A stretch of 46,981 nt of DNA from a virus (lineage: Duplodnaviria > Caudoviricetes). The stretch is taken from positions 1 to 46,981 of IMG/VR virus record IMGVR_UViG_3300012990_000004; one strand, given 5' to 3'. Shown piece after piece: positions 1 to 13,803 of the stretch (positions within the stretch are counted from its first letter, which is position 1; each line of letters opens with the position of its first letter). The position numbers were made by a program, and so were the translations under genes. The notes under the pieces are model-generated. The model worked only from the letters and a program-made list of their open reading frames with translations, had not been told where the DNA came from and did no database searches.

Positions 1-1005
<1,005 letters not shown>

Positions 1006-1009
1006 TGAG

Positions 1010-1026
1010 ATATATATATATATATA
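1010..1026. repeat. (AT)n tract at the gyrB/phage junction
   Basis: ATATATATATATATATA begins 4 nt after the gyrB stop; a similar tract lies at 46947-46960. Confidence 0.95.
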
Positions 1027-1410
1027 AAGCTTCTTATATATACTAAAGATAGTATATCATAGCTTTTGGTTTATGTAAAGCTTTATTTGTATAAATATAC
1101 TATGTAAAAGCTAATATTAGTAAACTAATACACTCCCCTGTATAAACAGCCGCAGGCTGTCCATGCGCTTAGAACCCCCGAAAGGGTCGCCAAGCTAGCC
1201 CCCTACACCCTAGGGGGGATTGGTGAGCTCCTAGAGCCATACAGGAGCTTCTAGAGGCATTTGGATAGGGGCCCTCCCCCTAGTTAATTTCTTGCAGATA
1301 TTTTGGAGTTGCATTCTTATCGGCGACCGAGCCCCCCGACACCCCGCTATGGGTGTGGTAGTACACCAGCACACTAGCGAAGCAGCTCACTAGTACAGCC
1401 TGAGCCCTAC

Positions 1411-1425
1411 TGTTATAGTATAACA
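1411..1425. promoter_or_regulatory. Zur-like box 1
   Basis: Perfect inverted repeat TGTTATA-G-TATAACA followed by TT; matches the core of the beta/gamma-proteobacterial Zur consensus GAAATGTTATANTATAACATTTC. Confidence 0.6.
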
Positions 1426-1549
1426 TTACATATTAGCACTAGCTTATATACATATCCTTCTATCGCGATGGATATATAGTGTACTAGGCGGTACAGTAAT
1501 TAGTAGTAATACTAATCCATAAGCTCCCCCTAATATATTCAGATAGTTA

Positions 1550-1564
1550 TGTTATAAGATAACA
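1550..1564. promoter_or_regulatory. Zur-like box 2
   Basis: TGTTAT-AAG-ATAACA, a second copy of the same palindrome. Confidence 0.55.
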
Positions 1565-1585
1565 CAAAATCCTGAGCTCAGATTA

Positions 1586-1602
1586 TGCACCATAATGGTG
1601 CG
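1586..1602. promoter_or_regulatory. NtrC-like enhancer box
   Basis: TGCACCATAATGGTGCG versus the consensus TGCACCA-N3-TGGTGCA; one mismatch, at the last base. Confidence 0.6.
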
Positions 1603-1705
1603 TTATTCATACCCGTATCAGATGGCATTGTAAACCGTTTTAAGCCGTTTTCGGGCTAGCCTGTACGGTCATAAGCCATGCCATGCGACATGAGCACCTA
1701 GCGAG

Positions 1706-1725
1706 TTATCCACAAGTTGTCCCCA
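1706..1725 (+). promoter_or_regulatory. Tandem DnaA boxes
   Basis: Perfect TTATCCACA (1706-1714) followed after 2 nt by degenerate TTGTCCCCA (1717-1725). Confidence 0.55.
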
Positions 1726-1760
1726 AAAGCCCCTAAAATGAACGCAAGATAAACGAAAAT

Positions 1761-1774
1761 GTCTCCCAAGAGAC
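1761..1774. repeat. Palindromic motif GTCTC-N4-GAGAC, copy 1
   Basis: GTCTCCCAAGAGAC, just upstream of the first promoter. Confidence 0.9.
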
Positions 1775-1790
1775 TATTTTTAAATAGTGC

Positions 1791-1818
1791 TTGCAATACC
1801 CAAAAATCGGAGTATGAT
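1791..1818 (+). promoter_or_regulatory. sigma70-type early promoter
   Basis: TTGCAA-16 nt-TATGAT upstream of the first phage gene. Confidence 0.6.
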
Positions 1819-1868
1819 TATATTTGTACCAAGCAGGTACACCCACAAACCAAAACGGAGATACACCC

Positions 1869-2396
1869 ATGACCACGAAAGCCAAAACCCCGAAAGCAGT
1901 TGTTGTTCTGAATGATGTTCAATCCGCCATCGTACGCAAGTACTCTGCACTCAGCACGAAAGCCAGTGACGCCTACAATGGTTTAACTTCCTACTCGCAG
2001 GACTTCATGACCACTGCTGTACTGTTTGATGGCACATGGTCTGATGAGGCTATTGAGGACTTGAACAAGGCACTCAAGGCCATGCAGTCAAAGATTGAGC
2101 GCAAGTCCGCAGGATATTCTACATTTAGCAGTGCCAAGTCCACTATCCTCAAGGCGTTTCGCCTCGGTATTGCCGATGTCCGCAAGTCCAAGAGCGACCT
2201 TGAAACTGAATGTAAAGCCCTGAAGCCTGAAGCCCAAGCCGAAGGCGGCGAAGGCGAAGCCCAAGCAACGAGCACTGAAACCCCGCAAGCCTTGATTGAG
2301 AGAGCGATGGCACTGCTAATCGCTCAGGGCGATGATACGCCATGCCAAACTCTTATTAAAATTGCGCATGGATATGTGAACAAAAAGCAAAAATAA
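1869..2396 (+). CDS. First early protein, function unknown
   Basis: ATG at 1869 after a GGAG RBS; flanked by a promoter and a terminator. Confidence 0.8.
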   Translation: MTTKAKTPKAVVVLNDVQSAIVRKYSALSTKASDAYNGLTSYSQDFMTTAVLFDGTWSDEAIEDLNKALKAMQSKIERKSAGYSTFSSAKSTILKAFRLGIADVRKSKSDLETECKALKPEAQAEGGEGEAQATSTETPQALIERAMALLIAQGDDTPCQTLIKIAHGYVNKKQK

Positions 2397-2398
2397 AA

Positions 2399-2412
2399 GT
2401 CTCCCAAGAGAC
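2399..2412. repeat. GTCTC-N4-GAGAC copy 2
   Basis: GTCTCCCAAGAGAC between the stop codon and the terminator. Confidence 0.9.
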
Positions 2413-2417
2413 AATAT

Positions 2418-2442
2418 AGCCCCGCGAAAGCGGGGCTTTTTT
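2418..2442 (+). terminator. Rho-independent terminator
   Basis: AGCCCCGC-GAAA-GCGGGGCT followed by TTTTT. Confidence 0.9.
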
Positions 2443-2576
2443 GTGCCTGTTTTCAGTACGGTCATCAATGACAGGCGAAAGGCGAAAGGCAAAGGGGAAA
2501 TATATCTTTAGAAAACATGGGCTTGCATCACTACGGTCATAAGCGTGTGGGGGAGAACGGCAGACAGGCGATGGGC

Positions 2577-2605
2577 TTGACAGACAGGGGATAGTGTGAT
2601 ATGAT
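2577..2605 (+). promoter_or_regulatory. sigma70 promoter with extended -10
   Basis: TTGACA-17 nt-TATGAT, with TGn before the -10. Confidence 0.8.
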
Positions 2606-2641
2606 GGTATTGTGAATGGGAATTGTCCTGCTCACTTAATT

Positions 2642-2655
2642 GTCTCCCAAGAGAC
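2642..2655. repeat. GTCTC-N4-GAGAC copy 3
   Basis: TGTCTCCCAAGAGACA downstream of the promoter. Confidence 0.9.
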
Positions 2656-2706
2656 ATTTTCTAACGGAGTCTTTATGAAAGCTGAATATATTGAGGAGAT
2701 TGTGTG

Positions 2707-2811
2707 ATGTGCAGATATAATTTCAAAGAGTTCTTGACAGACCTGCTTGGCTGTGTTATTATGGTATTTGTAATATGGCTGTTGATTTATTGTTTGTTCC
2801 TTCACCCTTAA
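2707..2811 (+). CDS. Small single-pass membrane peptide (34 aa)
   Basis: MCRYNFKEFLTDLLGCVIMVFVIWLLIYCLFLHP with a GAGGAG RBS; below the ORF-track size cut-off. Confidence 0.5.
   Translation: MCRYNFKEFLTDLLGCVIMVFVIWLLIYCLFLHP
2734..2762 (+). promoter_or_regulatory. sigma70 promoter with extended -10
   Basis: TTGACA-17 nt-TATTAT with TGn; upstream of the amidoligase gene. Confidence 0.7.
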
Positions 2812-2813
2812 TT

Positions 2814-2827
2814 GTCTCCCAAGAGAC
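2814..2827. repeat. GTCTC-N4-GAGAC copy 4
   Basis: TGTCTCCCAAGAGACA in the amidoligase leader. Confidence 0.9.
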
Positions 2828-2886
2828 AACTGCATATCGACAAAACCTTTGTAAAATTGTACACCCCACCAATAGAGGAAATCAGT

Positions 2887-4128
2887 ATGGACGAGCAAGA
2901 ATTGGAAGAATTGCAAGGCAGGATTGCCAATAAAGAACCCATCACAGCAAGCGAGTTTGCCATGCTGTCAAAAGACAACGGTGAGCCTGATAATTATGTT
3001 CAGCCCGAGGATGACTACGGCGCTTACCATCACACAGACAAGCTGCACTGGTGTGAGATAAGCGAGGAATATTATCTCGACAGGTCTGACTTTGTATCAT
3101 TTCATGGGCATCGTGGCATCATGGGAGAGGCTCATGTAGATGCCTTAGATAATGGCTCGTTTTTCTACTGCGAGCGTGGGCAAGTGTGGTATAGCAATCG
3201 CAGGTATAGCAGTATGTACATCGAGGACATCGGTGAGACATGGTGTTATGACGAATACTCTGATGATGTGTACTACTGCGAGGAGAGCGATTCCTACTAC
3301 ACTTCATCTGACGAAGCACCCGAGACTGACAGAATTCCAGGATATCACACACAACGGCGCAACTGGCTTGTGCCTGACGGCATTACGCTAGGCGTAGAAC
3401 TTGAGGTGTATGTAGAGGATGCGTGCGATGCGTATGCCAATCGCAATTCCGAGATTATCGGTGAGCGTGACGGCTCTCTTGACGACACCAATGGCATAGA
3501 ATTCATCGGCCCACCTATGAACTATGACAGGTACTTCAAGGCAGATAATCCGTGGAAGCGCACCCTTGGGGCTATCAATGACGCTGGTGTCAACGATACG
3601 CAAGATGATGGCTATGGTATGCACATCAGCGTAGGAAGGGCATGCGTGTCGCATGAGACACAGGCACGCTTCATTCTGTTCATTAACTGTTGCCAAGACT
3701 TCTCGGAGTTTATTGCACAGCGTGGGCAAAATCGTTGGGCAGAGTATGACAAGAAAGACCCTGCCTATGTCATGCATAAAGCATGCGAGTCATCTGATTG
3801 TTGGGGCACTAAGTATTCTGCCACCCATGTCGACCGCCATCGCATCGAGGTGCGTATATTCCGTAGCGTCACTGACCGCAAGCTGTTCCAAAAGAATGTA
3901 GACTATGTTATGTCTGCTCTTGAGTATGCCGACACCCATCTCTTTGTCGAGGACATGATGAGTGTGTCTAACTACCTTGCATGGCTGTCCAAGCAAGACA
4001 AGTATCAGGCTCTCAAGGATTTCATCGGAGATGACGGCATCCGATTCACTGAGCAAGATGCTCGCCGTAAGCAAATGCAAGAGTTCGGATTCATCATCGA
4101 AGAAACCAATCAAGCCCCAACTATCTAA
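2887..4128 (+). CDS. Putative amidoligase (COOH-NH2 ligase, glutamine-synthetase-like fold) with acidic Cys/aromatic-repeat N-terminus
   Basis: Motifs TLGVELEV, ERDGSL, GIEF, GMHISV, KY and RIEVRIF; ATG 2887 after GAGGA; adjacent to a class II GATase. Confidence 0.8.
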   Translation: MDEQELEELQGRIANKEPITASEFAMLSKDNGEPDNYVQPEDDYGAYHHTDKLHWCEISEEYYLDRSDFVSFHGHRGIMGEAHVDALDNGSFFYCERGQVWYSNRRYSSMYIEDIGETWCYDEYSDDVYYCEESDSYYTSSDEAPETDRIPGYHTQRRNWLVPDGITLGVELEVYVEDACDAYANRNSEIIGERDGSLDDTNGIEFIGPPMNYDRYFKADNPWKRTLGAINDAGVNDTQDDGYGMHISVGRACVSHETQARFILFINCCQDFSEFIAQRGQNRWAEYDKKDPAYVMHKACESSDCWGTKYSATHVDRHRIEVRIFRSVTDRKLFQKNVDYVMSALEYADTHLFVEDMMSVSNYLAWLSKQDKYQALKDFIGDDGIRFTEQDARRKQMQEFGFIIEETNQAPTI

Positions 4129-4147
4129 TAACTAAGGAGATTTACTT

Positions 4148-5050
4148 ATGTGCTTAGCACTATACAAACCTGCAAAGGCAAAGCTTAACCAAGACGAAAT
4201 GCGTACAGCGTTCAAGGCTAACCCCGATGGCGCAGGATTCGCATACTATGACCCCGCACTCAAGCGCGTAGTCATTCAGCGTGGATACTTCACATTCAAT
4301 GACCTATGGGCTGACCTAACCCCCATCATGGAAGACAACTGCCCGTTGATTCTGCACTACCGATGGGCTACGCATGGCGACATCAATGTCGAGAATTGCC
4401 ATCCGTTCCAGCTTACTGACGGTGCGCTCATTCACAATGGCATCATCAGTGGTATGGGTACATCAACATACAAGTCTGTTAGCAAGTATTACACGCCATC
4501 TACGCTCACGACTTGCGACACTGCCGAGTGTTCAGATGATAGGTCAGACACTCGTGAGTTTGTCGAGGACTATCTCAAGGACATGGATGTCACTGCGCTA
4601 CTGTCTGCCAAGAAACTCATCGAGCATACCATTGGCTATTCTAAGCTAGTCACTATCCACAACGATGGCTCTGTTATCATATTCAATGAACAGTCTGGTC
4701 ATTGGCGCAATGGTGTATGGTATAGCAATGATAGCTACAAGAAAGCTAATGCTGCTTCTGCCAACCCAGCCAACCTAGTGCCATCCAAGTATGACTATCA
4801 TGGCAAGTCTGGCACGACTGTATCCGTGGGCTATGATGAGTCTGCCCTAGATGCTGGATATGAATGGGACTTACTTCAATGTGCACGATGCCTCAACGAC
4901 ACCGAGCATGACTACACCTACGACCCCATTGATGATAGCTTTCTTGTCGAGTGTCTGCGCTGTGGTGAGGCGTGGATTATCGAAGGTAATGACTTGGACA
5001 TCTTGACTTACAACAACCTGCATGCTATTGCAACCAACAAAGGAGAATAA
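4148..5050 (+). CDS. Class II (Ntn) glutamine amidotransferase with C-terminal zinc ribbon
   Basis: N-terminal Met-Cys, NPDGAGF, HYRWATHG, NCHPF, HNG, SDT; C-terminal CARC...CLRC. Confidence 0.88.
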   Translation: MCLALYKPAKAKLNQDEMRTAFKANPDGAGFAYYDPALKRVVIQRGYFTFNDLWADLTPIMEDNCPLILHYRWATHGDINVENCHPFQLTDGALIHNGIISGMGTSTYKSVSKYYTPSTLTTCDTAECSDDRSDTREFVEDYLKDMDVTALLSAKKLIEHTIGYSKLVTIHNDGSVIIFNEQSGHWRNGVWYSNDSYKKANAASANPANLVPSKYDYHGKSGTTVSVGYDESALDAGYEWDLLQCARCLNDTEHDYTYDPIDDSFLVECLRCGEAWIIEGNDLDILTYNNLHAIATNKGE

Positions 5051-5335: not shown

Positions 5336-5349
5336 GTCTCCTAGGAGAC
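5336..5349. repeat. GTCTC-N4-GAGAC copy 5 (perfect palindrome)
   Basis: GTCTCCTAGGAGAC. Confidence 0.85.
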
Positions 5350-8240: not shown

Positions 8241-9401
8241 ATGCTTTTTACTTTAGACTTAGAAACATCTATAAACTGCAAGGATGAAGGGCGTATGTCT
8301 GGAACCCCTCACTACGCTGACAATCATGTCGTGTTGGCTGGATGGTCTGCATGGGATAAGATTAAAACATCTGACGATGTTGAAGACTTGGTGTTGGCGA
8401 TTACGGCTGCTGTTAAGGCAGAACCATACATTGTTCTGTGTGGGTTTAACATTAGCTTTGACCTAGCCTACCTGATGCGAGTTCCAGACTTTCGCGCCCT
8501 GCTTGCTAGATATGCTCAGAAGATACGTGTGTGGGACGCTCAGCAAGCGCAGTACCTCATATCTGGACAGGCAATGATATACCCCAGCTTGGATGGATGC
8601 TGTGAGCTCTACGGGCTTCCTGTGAAGCCTGACAAGATTAAGGCATACTGGAATTCAGGGATGCGTACTGAGGACATTCCGATTGACGAGCTGACGGAGT
8701 ACCTTGTGCATGACGTTAGCGTGACTGAGCAGCTTGCTAGGCTACAGGTTAAGGCTATGGACAAGACAATGAAGGACTTGTGTTTCATAAAGGGCGACGA
8801 TATACTGTGTACAACCATAATGGAGAATGCAGGTATGCACTTTGATTTAGATAAATGCGCAGAGATTAGTGACGAGCTTCGCGTGTCCTTGCTTGAGGTT
8901 CAGGAAAAGATGCACTGGCTTGTCCAGAGTGAGACGGGCTTCGAGTACTTCACCCCCACTAAGAACAAGGAAGCATCTACTGTCCTGTTCGGCGGTACGT
9001 TTGAGTGGGACACCAAGGTGGAGGATGGCGTGTACAAGAGTGGCATCAAGAAGGGTCAGGTAAAGCTTAAGAAGCAGGTCAATACGATTGACTTCGATGG
9101 TATCCTGAGCCCAGTTACCAAGGCTAAGGCTAAGGAATTGTTTCAGGACAGCGTTAGCGACCAAGTGCTGCAGTGGATTCTTGAGAACGAGCACCCTGAG
9201 AATTGGGCAGTAGGCCAGTTCATCGGCTACTTACAAGACTTCCGCGAGATGCACAAAGACTTGTCCACCTACTACGATGGCTACACTAAGCTTGTGTGGG
9301 AGGATGGCATGATTCGCCCTAACTTCCAGCACTGTGCCACCCGTACTGGTAGACAGTCATGCACACAGCCCAACCTACAAAATGTTTCTAAAGGAGAATG
9401 A
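8241..9401 (+). CDS. Family A DNA polymerase, N-terminal part (3'-5' exonuclease plus thumb)
   Basis: LDLETS, GFNISFDL, YLVHDV, TRTGRQSCTQPNLQN, then a stop. Confidence 0.88.
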   Translation: MLFTLDLETSINCKDEGRMSGTPHYADNHVVLAGWSAWDKIKTSDDVEDLVLAITAAVKAEPYIVLCGFNISFDLAYLMRVPDFRALLARYAQKIRVWDAQQAQYLISGQAMIYPSLDGCCELYGLPVKPDKIKAYWNSGMRTEDIPIDELTEYLVHDVSVTEQLARLQVKAMDKTMKDLCFIKGDDILCTTIMENAGMHFDLDKCAEISDELRVSLLEVQEKMHWLVQSETGFEYFTPTKNKEASTVLFGGTFEWDTKVEDGVYKSGIKKGQVKLKKQVNTIDFDGILSPVTKAKAKELFQDSVSDQVLQWILENEHPENWAVGQFIGYLQDFREMHKDLSTYYDGYTKLVWEDGMIRPNFQHCATRTGRQSCTQPNLQNVSKGE

Positions 9402-9402
9402 T

Positions 9403-9657
9403 ATGAGCGTTTATACTAGTGCGTGGCAAGATTTCAGCATTTGGCTCTCAGAGTATGCAGAATTCGACAATGACGATATGTATACTGAAGCTGTAAATGT
9501 ATTCGATAAATACGAAAACGAGGCCATTGAATTGCGTAATAAACTACACGAAGCAGAGATGCTTGTTATTGATTTGCGGGAAGAGTTAGCGAATGTAGTT
9601 GAGCCGATTATCAGAAGCCAGCAGTACAACGATGAGGTTTATAAGGACACCCTGTAA
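9403..9657 (+). CDS. Acidic coiled-coil hypothetical protein between the two polymerase genes
   Basis: ATG 9403 after AAGGAG; fills the whole gap between the pol parts. Confidence 0.7.
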   Translation: MSVYTSAWQDFSIWLSEYAEFDNDDMYTEAVNVFDKYENEAIELRNKLHEAEMLVIDLREELANVVEPIIRSQQYNDEVYKDTL

Positions 9658-10488
9658 ATGAGCCGTATCAAAGAATGCTTCACCACTAGGTTTGAGAACG
9701 GCAAGATTGTCAATGCCGACTTCTCTCAGCTAGAAGTTGTTGGCTTGGCTATCCTGTCCCTTGACCGACAGCTGATTGAGGATATTAAATCAGGCAGGGA
9801 TATGCACGTCATCCGTGCTGCTGAGTTGCTTGGGATTGCAGAGAGTGCGGTCACTAAGCAACAACGACAGCTTGCTAAGATGCTGAGCTTCCAGTTGCAG
9901 TATGGCTCTGGTGCTCGCAACATGGCAGAGCAGAATAAGATTCACATTAACTTGGCTAAGAAGTTTATCGAACAATACTACGAGAGGTACAAAGATGTCA
10001 AACGATGGCAAGACTACGTTAGGGAGAGTGTCGTTGCGTCTCGCAGAGTTGAGGGGCATACTAAAGGAGGCTACCCCAGAGGAGTTGGAACATACCGAAG
10101 CCCTTCTGGTAGAGCTTATTCGTTTTATGAATACGACCCTATGGGAAGCTGGCAGAAAGACCCCAGCTTCTCCCCGACGGAAATGAAGAACTACCCCTGC
10201 CAAGGGTTCAGTACTGGCGATGTTATGGCGCTGTATCGGTCTCAGGTTATGAGACAGCTACTACCCCATATGTTTACTAATATCTTATTTATCAATAGCG
10301 TACATGATAGTGTGATGTTTGACTGTGATAGTGAGGAAAGTGTTGCAATCTGTAAAAAGGTGTTGTATAATGTGTGTAAGGAGCTTCCAATGCTTCTTAC
10401 CAAGCGGTTCGGAATTGAAGTGCCGTTGGAGTTTAACATTGATGTAGAGACTGGCCCATCGTGGGCCGAATTAACTAAGGAGCAATAA
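9658..10488 (+). CDS. Family A DNA polymerase, C-terminal catalytic part
   Basis: Motif A NADFSQLEV, motif B RQLAKMLSFQLQYG (Phe at the 762-equivalent position), NYPCQG, motif C SVHDSV. Confidence 0.92.
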   Translation: MSRIKECFTTRFENGKIVNADFSQLEVVGLAILSLDRQLIEDIKSGRDMHVIRAAELLGIAESAVTKQQRQLAKMLSFQLQYGSGARNMAEQNKIHINLAKKFIEQYYERYKDVKRWQDYVRESVVASRRVEGHTKGGYPRGVGTYRSPSGRAYSFYEYDPMGSWQKDPSFSPTEMKNYPCQGFSTGDVMALYRSQVMRQLLPHMFTNILFINSVHDSVMFDCDSEESVAICKKVLYNVCKELPMLLTKRFGIEVPLEFNIDVETGPSWAELTKEQ

Positions 10489-12774: not shown

Positions 12775-13079
12775 CTGATAAATTACCTAGTGCGAAGTTT
12801 CCTCCATACGGCTATATGCCACATGAACGGGCAGAATATCCGCAACATGAGCACAAGCCTGATATGGTGAATGGCCCTCCCCATTACAGGCAGGGCAACA
12901 TAGAATGTATTACCGCAATCGAAGCCATGCTCACTAAGGCAGAGTTTGATGGGTATTGCAAGGGCAACATCGTCAAATACATCTGGCGCGAGAATCACAA
13001 AGGACGGGTTGAGAGCTTGAAGAAAGCCCGATGGTACTTAAACAAACTAGTGGAGTCGCATGAAAATCCTTCTACTTGA
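12771..13079 (+). CDS. DUF3310 / T7 gp1.7-like nucleotide kinase
   Basis: DMVNGPPHY...IECI...GNIVKYIWR...LKKARWYL. Confidence 0.85.
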   Translation: MTDKLPSAKFPPYGYMPHERAEYPQHEHKPDMVNGPPHYRQGNIECITAIEAMLTKAEFDGYCKGNIVKYIWRENHKGRVESLKKARWYLNKLVESHENPST

Positions 13080-13803
13080 CATCGAGACATCTCCGCACAG
13101 CGTGTATGCGTGGGGCTTGTTCAAGCAAAACATTAGCTTGAGCCAAGTGAAAGACACAAGCCGTGTGCTATGCTCTGCATACAAGTGGCTTGGAGAAAAG
13201 AAGACACACTTTACATCTGAATGGACAGATGGTGTTGACGGCATGCTGGAAAAGATGTATAATGTAATTGAGGAGGCAGATGCAATCGTTACCTACAACG
13301 GGAACCGCTTCGACCTGCCCACCCTCAACAAGGAGTTCTTGCTAACTGGGTATAGTCCACCTGCTCCATACAAGAGCGTTGACATATATCGTACTGTTAA
13401 AAACAAGTTTAGGTTTGCAAGTAACAAGCTAGACCATGTTGCACAACAGCTTGGACTAGGCAGTAAGACCGACCACTACGGGTTTCAAATGTGGCTTGAT
13501 GTCATGGACGGCAACAAGAAAGCTCAGAAGCTCATGGAGACTTACAACAAACAAGACGTAGTATTACTGGAGAAAGTGTATGACATCGTTTTACCTTGGA
13601 TTGCTAATCATCCTAATCGTAGCCATCACAGCGGGTCTGCTGTATGTCCAAACTGTGGTTCGAAACACTTACAACATCGAGGATTTACTATCACCGCCGT
13701 GGGACGACAACAACGCTTCCAATGTCAAGACTGCGGCAAGTGGAGTAAAGCTTCAGAAAGCTGTGAGAAAACCCCGAAAGAAAGCCGTATCAATTCAATC
13801 TAA
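13060..13803 (+). CDS. RNase H-like/DEDD 3'-5' exonuclease with C-terminal zinc ribbon
   Basis: LLDIET, YNGNRFD, YNKQDV; CPNC...CQDC. Confidence 0.82.
   Translation: MKILLLDIETSPHSVYAWGLFKQNISLSQVKDTSRVLCSAYKWLGEKKTHFTSEWTDGVDGMLEKMYNVIEEADAIVTYNGNRFDLPTLNKEFLLTGYSPPAPYKSVDIYRTVKNKFRFASNKLDHVAQQLGLGSKTDHYGFQMWLDVMDGNKKAQKLMETYNKQDVVLLEKVYDIVLPWIANHPNRSHHSGSAVCPNCGSKHLQHRGFTITAVGRQQRFQCQDCGKWSKASESCEKTPKESRINSI

Follow-up and report, generated by a model that had tools for sequence, protein, structure and literature searches.

Why should the gene-free DNA near one end of a phage genome be lined with words that resemble the binding sites of unrelated host regulators? The question is raised by positions 1400-1730 of the window, i.e., the whole stretch of DNA analysed here, a single contig of 46,981 bases. 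A preliminary description had proposed that this leader, at the probably first-injected end of a lytic phage, acts as a landing pad for host proteins, and every word that it listed was recovered at 1400-1730 when checked against the sequence.

The phage, its predicted end and the words in its leader

The terminase of the window shares 57% identity with that of Methylophilales phage MEP401, 55% with that of ICP2, and 52% with that of ICBM2 (full length), all members of the Zobellviridae, and judged by its sequence the phage is a Zobellviridae-like podovirus. It has two converging arms: up to 16.4 kb the plus strand carries the replication genes, whereas the structural genes lie on the minus strand. 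This plan matches MEP401 and ICBM2, and the phage encodes its own primase, helicase, and polymerase. The DNA polymerase is encoded in two pieces (8241-10488 and 13060-13803) with a 107-aa frame between them and a separate exonuclease-like gene beside them, an arrangement also seen in MEP401. At 2887-5050 a 413-aa early gene with amidoligase-like motifs, recognised by eye, is followed by a class II glutamine amidotransferase-like gene; the 413-aa protein had no Pfam or PHROG match, and a search for related viral loci found none. The sequencing runs containing parts of the phage were mostly from freshwater, and there was no RNA dataset among the runs listed for it; contigs from runs X2-X5, X9, and X21 were aligned to the window in addition to those of X1.

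Positions 1-1005 (plus strand) hold the 3' part of a bacterial gyrB (Pfam Toprim and gyrase B C-terminus), which meets the phage DNA at a (TA)n tract in which the contig also ends. In the close relative G001 phage sequence lies on both sides of the equivalent tract, and in run X1 a single contig piece covers 1035-3200 with zero differences and without gyrB attached. The fragment is therefore probably foreign to the phage and was joined to it by mis-assembly. A prophage reading of the join was rejected, since no integrase match was obtained among the 56 window proteins in a PHROGs scan and the join is absent from both G001 and run X1.

The adjoining non-coding DNA (1006-1285), which would be the late-gene side of the terminus, i.e., the right genome end, is free of scored host boxes and is conserved, with 241 of 266 positions at 1025-1290 identical between the window and L003, a close relative whose helicase is 97% identical. 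It is followed on the plus strand by a terminus-like motif (1286-1345), an A/T tract and then C tracts, which was overlooked in the preliminary description, is common to distant relatives, and has the layout and spacing of the terminal-repeat start of ICBM2. The ICBM2 terminal repeat was mapped with PacBio reads according to the available part of its published account (PMC6775973). That genome begins 17 bases past the start of the A/T core, and application of this spacing to the window places the predicted left end, and the start of the terminal repeat, at ~1313; other annotated ends deviate from the 17-base rule by up to ~20 bases, and the contigs of the window's runs show neither the ends nor the repeat length of short direct terminal repeats. 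When the motif was used as a search pattern, a related terminase or helicase was found in 60 of 79 records.

With the end at ~1313, the boxes lie ~100-410 bp inside it and ahead of the first predicted early promoter, a sigma-70-like one at 1791-1818 (plus strand, 9/12 in a consensus scan, ~480 bp inside the predicted end); L003 has a promoter-like TTGACG/TATTAT at the equivalent position. With the entry order of T7 as a model, we infer that the box-bearing left end enters first. The earlier placement of the boxes at the end of a lytic phage agrees with this predicted left end of a podovirus and with the result of the integrase search.

The first early gene (1869-2396, plus strand) encodes a 175-aa protein that has no PHROG or Pfam family above cut-off, is similar to unnamed viral clusters in the ESM Atlas, and has a 26% identical homolog in the related locus L238. 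A palindrome of the phage's own, GTCTCCCAAGAGAC, occurs in four exact copies, all in the early region (1761-1774, and at 2399, 2642, and 2814), with a variant at 5336 (shuffle mean 0.39); it flanks the first gene and sits by early promoters. The homologous gene of L238 is likewise flanked by a different palindrome (~1855 and ~2425), and the two loci suggest a phage protein and a putative palindromic operator that change together. A DNA similarity search of 1006-2900 against cultured phages returned only short chance or terminator matches.

The description of the leader as ORF-free agrees with our finding of no ORF of at least 70 aa in 1006-1823, the right part of which is touched by two minus-strand frames (50 and 56 aa). 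No Rfam match was obtained in 1400-1730, and all 10 matches in 1000-3000 were below the gathering score. The leader contains two putative Zur boxes of the form TGTTAT-N3-ATAACA (box 1, perfect, at 1411-1425; box 2 at 1550-1564), a putative NtrC box (TGCACCATAATGGTGCG, 1586-1602), and on the plus strand (1706-1725) two predicted DnaA boxes, a perfect one (TTATCCACA, 1706-1714) and a weak one (TTGTCCCCA, 1717-1725). The remaining listed words are the palindromes ATATCC-N12-GGATAT (1452-1475) and ATTAGTA-N4-TACTAAT (1499-1516, a candidate site), CTGAGCTCAG (1572-1581), and the LacI-like word AAACCGTTTT (1632-1641). A degenerate IHF-like site behind a C run (1526-1549, plus strand, two mismatches to the consensus) had been overlooked. 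There was no sigma-54 match in the window's leader and its NtrC box is single; the NtrC enhancer layout, i.e., paired sites upstream of a sigma-54 promoter, was found only in the relative L002.

The Zur, NtrC, and DnaA matches in 1400-1730 numbered 4 vs. a maximum of 2 in 5000 dinucleotide shuffles (4888 of which had none), and they are the sole ones in 1006-46981. These sites are thus enriched over both shuffled sequence and the rest of the genome, with the shuffle test at window level being post hoc because the motifs came from the region itself. Spaced palindromes in 1400-1730 numbered 6 vs. a shuffle mean of 1.8; 19 of 1000 shuffles reached this number, as did none of 136 other 331-bp windows of the phage.

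The scan used general consensus motifs, and the Zur and NtrC words were checked against bacterial genomes; leader words were assigned to Fur, IHF, and sigma-54 by their resemblance to such consensuses. The DnaA consensus is that quoted in the available text of bioRxiv 10.1101/866236. The 20-base NtrC word matched 15 GTDB genomes; all four proteobacterial matches were upstream of glnA or an ntrB-like kinase gene, and the other 11 (9 Acidobacteriota, 1 Prevotella, 1 archaeon) were away from glnA/ntrB-type genes. In Providencia genome G087 all four sites of the Zur pattern precede znuA/znuC, zinT, a DUF1007 gene, or L31-L36 paralogues (reversed control: 0), and the pattern was absent from three of the four genomes tried, all MAGs. 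The exact 17-base Zur word had one match in 401 genomes, lying across the start of a gene that was recognised by eye as Fur/Zur-like. The Zur and NtrC words, previously said to match proteobacterial sites, thus appear to be real bacterial operators, marking zinc-regulon and glnA/ntrB promoters. No host regulon was found for the ATTAGTA box because ATTAGTA-N4-TACTAAT occurred in 2 of 151 Gammaproteobacteria genomes vs. 4 for the reversed control.

Conservation and exchange of the strip among close relatives

The expectation that related phages keep the boxes while the spacers diverge held for some of the words and failed for others. L003 keeps Zur box 1 (15/15), the NtrC box with flanks (23/24), the DnaA box with flanks (14/14), and the ATTAGTA box (15/18), and has two perfect DnaA boxes; its spacer corresponding to 1606-1701 is only 46/96 identical, 1348-1410 is mostly absent, and its first early genes look unrelated to those of the window. 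Not retained at their positions in L003 were ATATCC-N12-GGATAT (2/24), Zur box 2 (6/15), CTGAGCTCAG (4/10), the LacI-like word (7/16), and TTGTCCCCA (3/9). Without conservation, the ATATCC palindrome, CTGAGCTCAG, and the LacI-like word are best removed from the list or kept on it as weak candidates.

Contigs from runs X4, X5, and X21 cover ~1406-1541 and differ from the window at 1441-1458, 1475-1494, 1507, and 1511. Zur box 1 had zero substitutions in the X4 and X21 contigs covering it, and a core around ATCGCGAT (1459-1474) was unchanged in all three while 1441-1458 was heavily altered; this core is absent in L003. Past 1541 the X21 contig has a full second Zur-type box with a different spacer, and the X4 contig the first half of such a box. 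The ATTAGTA box is kept with an altered spacer in L003 and L239. The IHF-like site at 1526-1549 aligns with consensus IHF words after the same C run in L238, L239, and L002 and with a near-consensus word in L241. An 11-base copy of the ATCGCGAT core was also seen in the distant L023, and a TGTAC-N6-GTACA word (1480-1495 in the window) is retained with a new spacer in L003 and broken in X4 and X21.

Using a 22-base anchor outside the terminus as query, six metagenome loci were retrieved, one of which was L003's own contig. The right-end sequence of L238, L240, and L241 is near letter-for-letter that of the window. The predicted content of the strip is Zur/NtrC/DnaA in the window and L003, three IHF words in L238, three DnaA boxes and an IHF-like word in L240 and L241, and a Zur-like word, the ATTAGTA box, and an IHF word in L239; the sequence of L242 stops too early. 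Between anchor and terminus-like motif L239 and L242 have ~600 extra bases that are minus-strand gene-like. At 35690-36100 of L002, just inside the terminus motif, two NtrC words, two IHF words, and a forward sigma-54 word stand in enhancer-promoter order; among the relatives, this locus is the most convincing candidate for genuine nitrogen control. The proteins concerned, which serve zinc, iron, nitrogen, replication, or DNA architecture, have DNA binding in common but no signal.

Predicted sites at the ends of related phages

The IMG/VR database was scanned with the terminus motif alone, which gave at least 119 loci. Among the first 80 of these (79 searched), 56 had a related terminase and 4 more a helicase; the other 20 were dropped. 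Together with 24 hand-picked loci this resulted in 84 termini, of which 71 had a leader of at least 250 bases and 51 remained after dereplication.

Between +40 and +440 the 51 leaders contained (shuffle means in brackets) 20 Fur (0.6), 20 IHF (1.8), 14 sigma-54 (1.1), 10 DnaA (1.3), 7 Zur (0.2), and 4 NtrC (0.3) sites. CRP (1 site; 0.6) and FNR (1 site; 0.1) showed no enrichment in these leaders and had no site in 19 held-out ones. In the mirror zone outside the terminus and in both distant zones the counts hardly rose above background, if at all; the enrichment of the six motifs, about ten-fold, lies within 500 bp inside the end and is not seen on its other side. Letter-permuted motifs reached the observed counts in 0 of 100 cases (Zur: 0 of 29). 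In the 40 leaders obtained from the motif scan alone the same comparison gave 0 of 100 for Fur, IHF, and sigma-54 and 1 of 100 for DnaA; with 1 and 0 sites, Zur and NtrC showed no enrichment there, and their family-level enrichment comes from the hand-picked loci, two of which (the window and L003) are homologous.

Since sigma-54 had been added after the leaders were viewed, the remaining 39 loci were tested as a held-out set (34 long enough, 19 independent, phage identity unchecked). It contained 5 sigma-54 (shuffle mean 0.35), 4 Fur (0.19), 3 IHF (0.54), 4 DnaA (0.5), 1 Zur, and no NtrC sites, with only 2 IHF sites outside the terminus; when DnaA was counted by loci, 21 of 200 shuffles reached the observed value. 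Enrichment in both the unselected and the held-out set is seen for Fur, IHF, and sigma-54 but not for Zur or NtrC. When 66 leaders (the 51 plus 15 held-out ones, 4 having been removed by eye as unlike phage ends) were searched for motifs without priors, the highest-ranked words were IHF-, Fur-, sigma-54-, and DnaA-like.

A box was present between +40 and +440 in 29 of the 51 leaders and no recognised box in 22, so either the strip is not universal or other sites go unrecognised. The number of sites per leader per 100 bp was 0.41, 0.37, 0.41, 0.22, and 0.18 from 0 to +500, 0-0.04 from -1000 to 0, and 0-0.10 beyond +500 (51 leaders). Non-coding DNA of the 40 leaders with both gene calls was eight times denser in sites inside the terminus (79 in 30.7 kb) than outside (5 in 16.1 kb), the quartiles of long leaders counted from the terminus held 25, 19, 7, and 5 sites, and a called sigma-70 promoter was overlapped by 4 of 51 sites, with 31 of 51 more than 100 bp upstream; these density, quartile, and overlap counts come from crude gene and promoter calls, and part of the skew could be due to small genes that the calls overlooked. 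Sigma-54 words were forward in 8 and reverse in 6 cases and IHF words in 11 and 9. Arrays were found in L165 (nine Fur matches) and in L142 and L164 (five to six sigma-54 matches).

Ten records with annotated or presumed ends were surveyed. The cultured phage VpV262 has six sigma-54-like words on both strands at +173 to +346 of its annotated end, ICBM1 and ICBM2 have one perfect Zur box each (inside and outside the repeat), GP100 has one Zur-like and one sigma-54 word, and phiEco32 one Zur-like word; no recognised box was found in the first 1000 bp of RIO-1, T7, LUZ24, phiKMV, and SP6. A collection-wide side test, in which the terminus motif was paired with a perfect Fur box at a distance of 60-90 bp, found 4 cases inside and none outside, a consistent but small result. 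Among 45 helicase-selected loci that had been scanned first, many were without a box or without a leader in the DNA examined. The multi-regulator landing row proposed for the window is thereby extended, as predicted sites for several unrelated regulators, to a family-wide pattern.

Some further words were noted. GAAC-N7-GAAC direct repeats, which match the alphaproteobacterial LexA box, lie inside the terminus in 8 of 51 leaders (including L127, L128, and L162) and never outside. GCC-GNA-GGC words, which in single-stranded DNA could fold into very stable mini-hairpins, recur on both terminus sides, in leaders L134, L138, L161, L164, L174, and L189 and in the window's right-end DNA near 1150. 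An unclassified viral group of six loci (L013, L016, L017, L019-L021) carries the same 19-base Zur word in a gene-free stretch beside G tracts, and L014 has this word beside a Fur-like box.

Precedents and possible roles of the strip

Sites for host proteins on terminal phage DNA are already known in single cases, namely T5, CtrA in LPEG phages, and phi29, in the literature available to us. The injection-stop region of T5 is likewise non-coding terminal DNA of a lytic phage, has host DnaA boxes, and has a proposed role in entry according to the available text (bioRxiv 10.1101/866236); our scan found four Fur matches and one DnaA box at 9510-9713. The T5 region lies at 9.1-10.1 kb from the end, where the 10-kb repeat of this siphovirus, which injects in two steps, has its inner edge, whereas the strip described here starts ~50-100 bp from the end, before the first promoter and the first gene and within 0.5 kb of the predicted end, and swaps regulators; a location as in T5 (~10 kb inside, after a pre-early gene block) was not found in the window. 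The LPEG phages (phiCbK-like, Delta) have CtrA sites concentrated in terminal repeats or gap regions that turn over among close relatives; in contrast to our family, one regulator is shown there acting on promoters and the accessible part of the account reports no DnaA asymmetry (PMC9437464). The window family has predicted sites for at least six unrelated proteins, in both orientations and mostly off-promoter (4 of 51 on a crudely called promoter), and the LPEG pattern of one regulator with sites on phage promoters was not found in it.

Phage phi29, a virulent phage with sites for more than one host DNA-binding protein (Spo0A and Spo0J), differs in that the sites are promoter-associated and belong to one pathway, sporulation, with no exchangeable end strip in the text accessible (PMC9437464). 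Terminal proteins, TelN, and Gam meet the same problem of linear ends facing RecBCD, SbcCD, and end-sensing defences, as far as the accessible texts go (PMC13685816; bioRxiv 10.1101/866236); these are phage proteins, whereas the window offers only candidate sites in cis for host proteins, through which protection would be putative. Zobellviridae (ICBM1/2, VpV262, RIO-1) share the two-arm genome, a short terminal repeat with a conserved G+C-rich 5' part, and an ORF-free region between the arms, and the available portion of their description names the G+C-rich part alone, as a possible enzyme site, without mention of host regulator boxes (PMC6775973). In a literature search that left most subscription journals outside, no published account was found of zobellvirus ends that carry an array of interchangeable sites for several regulators. 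What the present analysis adds is the statistics anchored on the genome end, the arrays of sigma-54 and IHF words, and the finding that close relatives swap their cassettes.

Predicted binders that are unrelated and interchangeable, arrayed in either orientation and at one end only, make occupancy the likely function; it is favoured over sensing because the sites face both ways and rarely overlap a promoter and because the cassettes swap. Our leading reading, held tentatively, is that the strip is a coat of borrowed host proteins that would shield the leading end. Host Zur, NtrC, and DnaA together with IHF-like binders would coat the left end on entry, the coated end would be shielded from end-loading nucleases, and the shield would last until transcription by host RNA polymerase from the first promoter yields phage proteins. 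Shielding is placed first because this end lies open at a time when there are no phage proteins yet, and because free ends are where several host systems load: in the available texts, the first-entering end meets RecBCD ahead of any phage protein (bioRxiv 10.1101/866236), and several defences act on free DNA ends (PMC13685816). Against it stand the 22 of 51 relatives' leaders without a recognised box, the enhancer-promoter order in L002, which fits regulation, and the similar Fur/DnaA cluster of T5, which lies 9.5 kb inside the end and whose role therefore cannot be shielding. RecBCD moreover pushes off tightly bound proteins in vitro, and Zur and NtrC bind according to the zinc and nitrogen status of the cell, which would suit a constant shield poorly.

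Bound host proteins might instead retain the leading few hundred bases, either in the cytoplasm or at the membrane, and would stop back-sliding or pace entry until RNA polymerase at the first promoter pulls the rest in. Such an anchor or ratchet fits nearly as well as the shield and is compatible with it: it accounts for the same one-sidedness, interchangeability, and absence of orientation, the strip stops where the first promoter starts, and the T5 injection-stop region, with its four Fur matches and DnaA box in the same scan, has a proposed DnaA-tether model in the text available (bioRxiv 10.1101/866236). We consider it somewhat improbable, as two-step entry is not known for Zobellviridae-like phages, no A1/A2-like match was obtained among the 56 proteins with PHROGs (several early proteins being without family), the skew toward the very end fits shielding slightly better, and the rapid cassette turnover would seem to resemble conflict more than mechanics. 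Comparably doubtful is regulation, in which host factors would tune the first early promoter (to zinc, iron, nitrogen, or replication state, or by countering H-NS-type silencing) in the manner of CtrA in some alphaproteobacterial phages. It has the best precedent, a case in which control of promoters was tested and sites turn over within terminal repeats (accessible part of PMC9437464), and agrees with the enhancer-like order in L002 and with a late-gene side without sites, as expected if early genes alone were controlled. It is at odds with the swapping of unrelated regulators among close relatives, with sigma-54 words in both directions, with the 4 of 51 sites overlapping a crudely called promoter, and, in the window, with Zur boxes ~230 and ~370 bp upstream of the promoter and an NtrC box without a sigma-54 match.

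The cassettes of L240 and L241 (three DnaA boxes and an IHF-like word) and a DnaA cluster in L037 resemble origins, the sites adjoin the terminus motif, and IHF aids lambda packaging, all of which could point to DnaA and IHF sites that open an origin or help terminase or terminal-repeat processing, with the other boxes as passengers. This role is unlikely, given that Fur- or sigma-54-dominated leaders fill the same place, that the Zur and NtrC boxes are conserved as well as DnaA in L003, and that the phage encodes its own primase, helicase, and polymerase. More unlikely still is a decoy, i.e., replicated phage genomes that titrate repressors (Zur, Fur) and induce metal uptake by the host. Arrays of several copies and sites close to perfect would suit it, but any non-coding DNA would do, and it fits worst because the non-coding DNA beyond the terminus is nearly empty of sites (by the same crude gene calls, 5 in 16.1 kb outside vs. 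79 in 30.7 kb inside); IHF is also too abundant for titration by a few sites. That the words are chance palindromes in AT-rich non-coding DNA is highly improbable and already largely refuted: three listed words are not conserved and the palindrome density is only moderately high (19 of 1000 shuffles), yet the shuffle, permuted-motif, held-out, and other-side controls are all contrary and the boxes are conserved against diverged spacers. Among the four functions originally proposed, the coat and the entry anchor thus fit best, the decoy fits worst, and sensing fits poorly with interchangeable cassettes.

Beyond this phage, lytic phages may possess a gene-free counter-defence in which the first-entering bases are tiled with exchangeable strong sites for host proteins at hand (IHF, Fur, Zur, DnaA, NtrC, sigma-54 polymerase) as a borrowed cap, a generalisation that we advance with a little more reserve than the coat itself. 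The escape of a linear genome from end-loading nucleases and the part of host factors in DNA entry are long-standing open questions (for T5, see the available text of bioRxiv 10.1101/866236). Zobellvirus-like phages offer a short, end-anchored, naturally swapped element together with box-carrying cultured members (ICBM1, ICBM2, VpV262), and the box set could aid host prediction for uncultured phages. If true, the borrowed cap would explain the survival of injected linear DNA in the face of end-loading nucleases before any phage gene is expressed and may unite Fur/DnaA clusters at other phage ends; such a function, if shown, would be categorically new.
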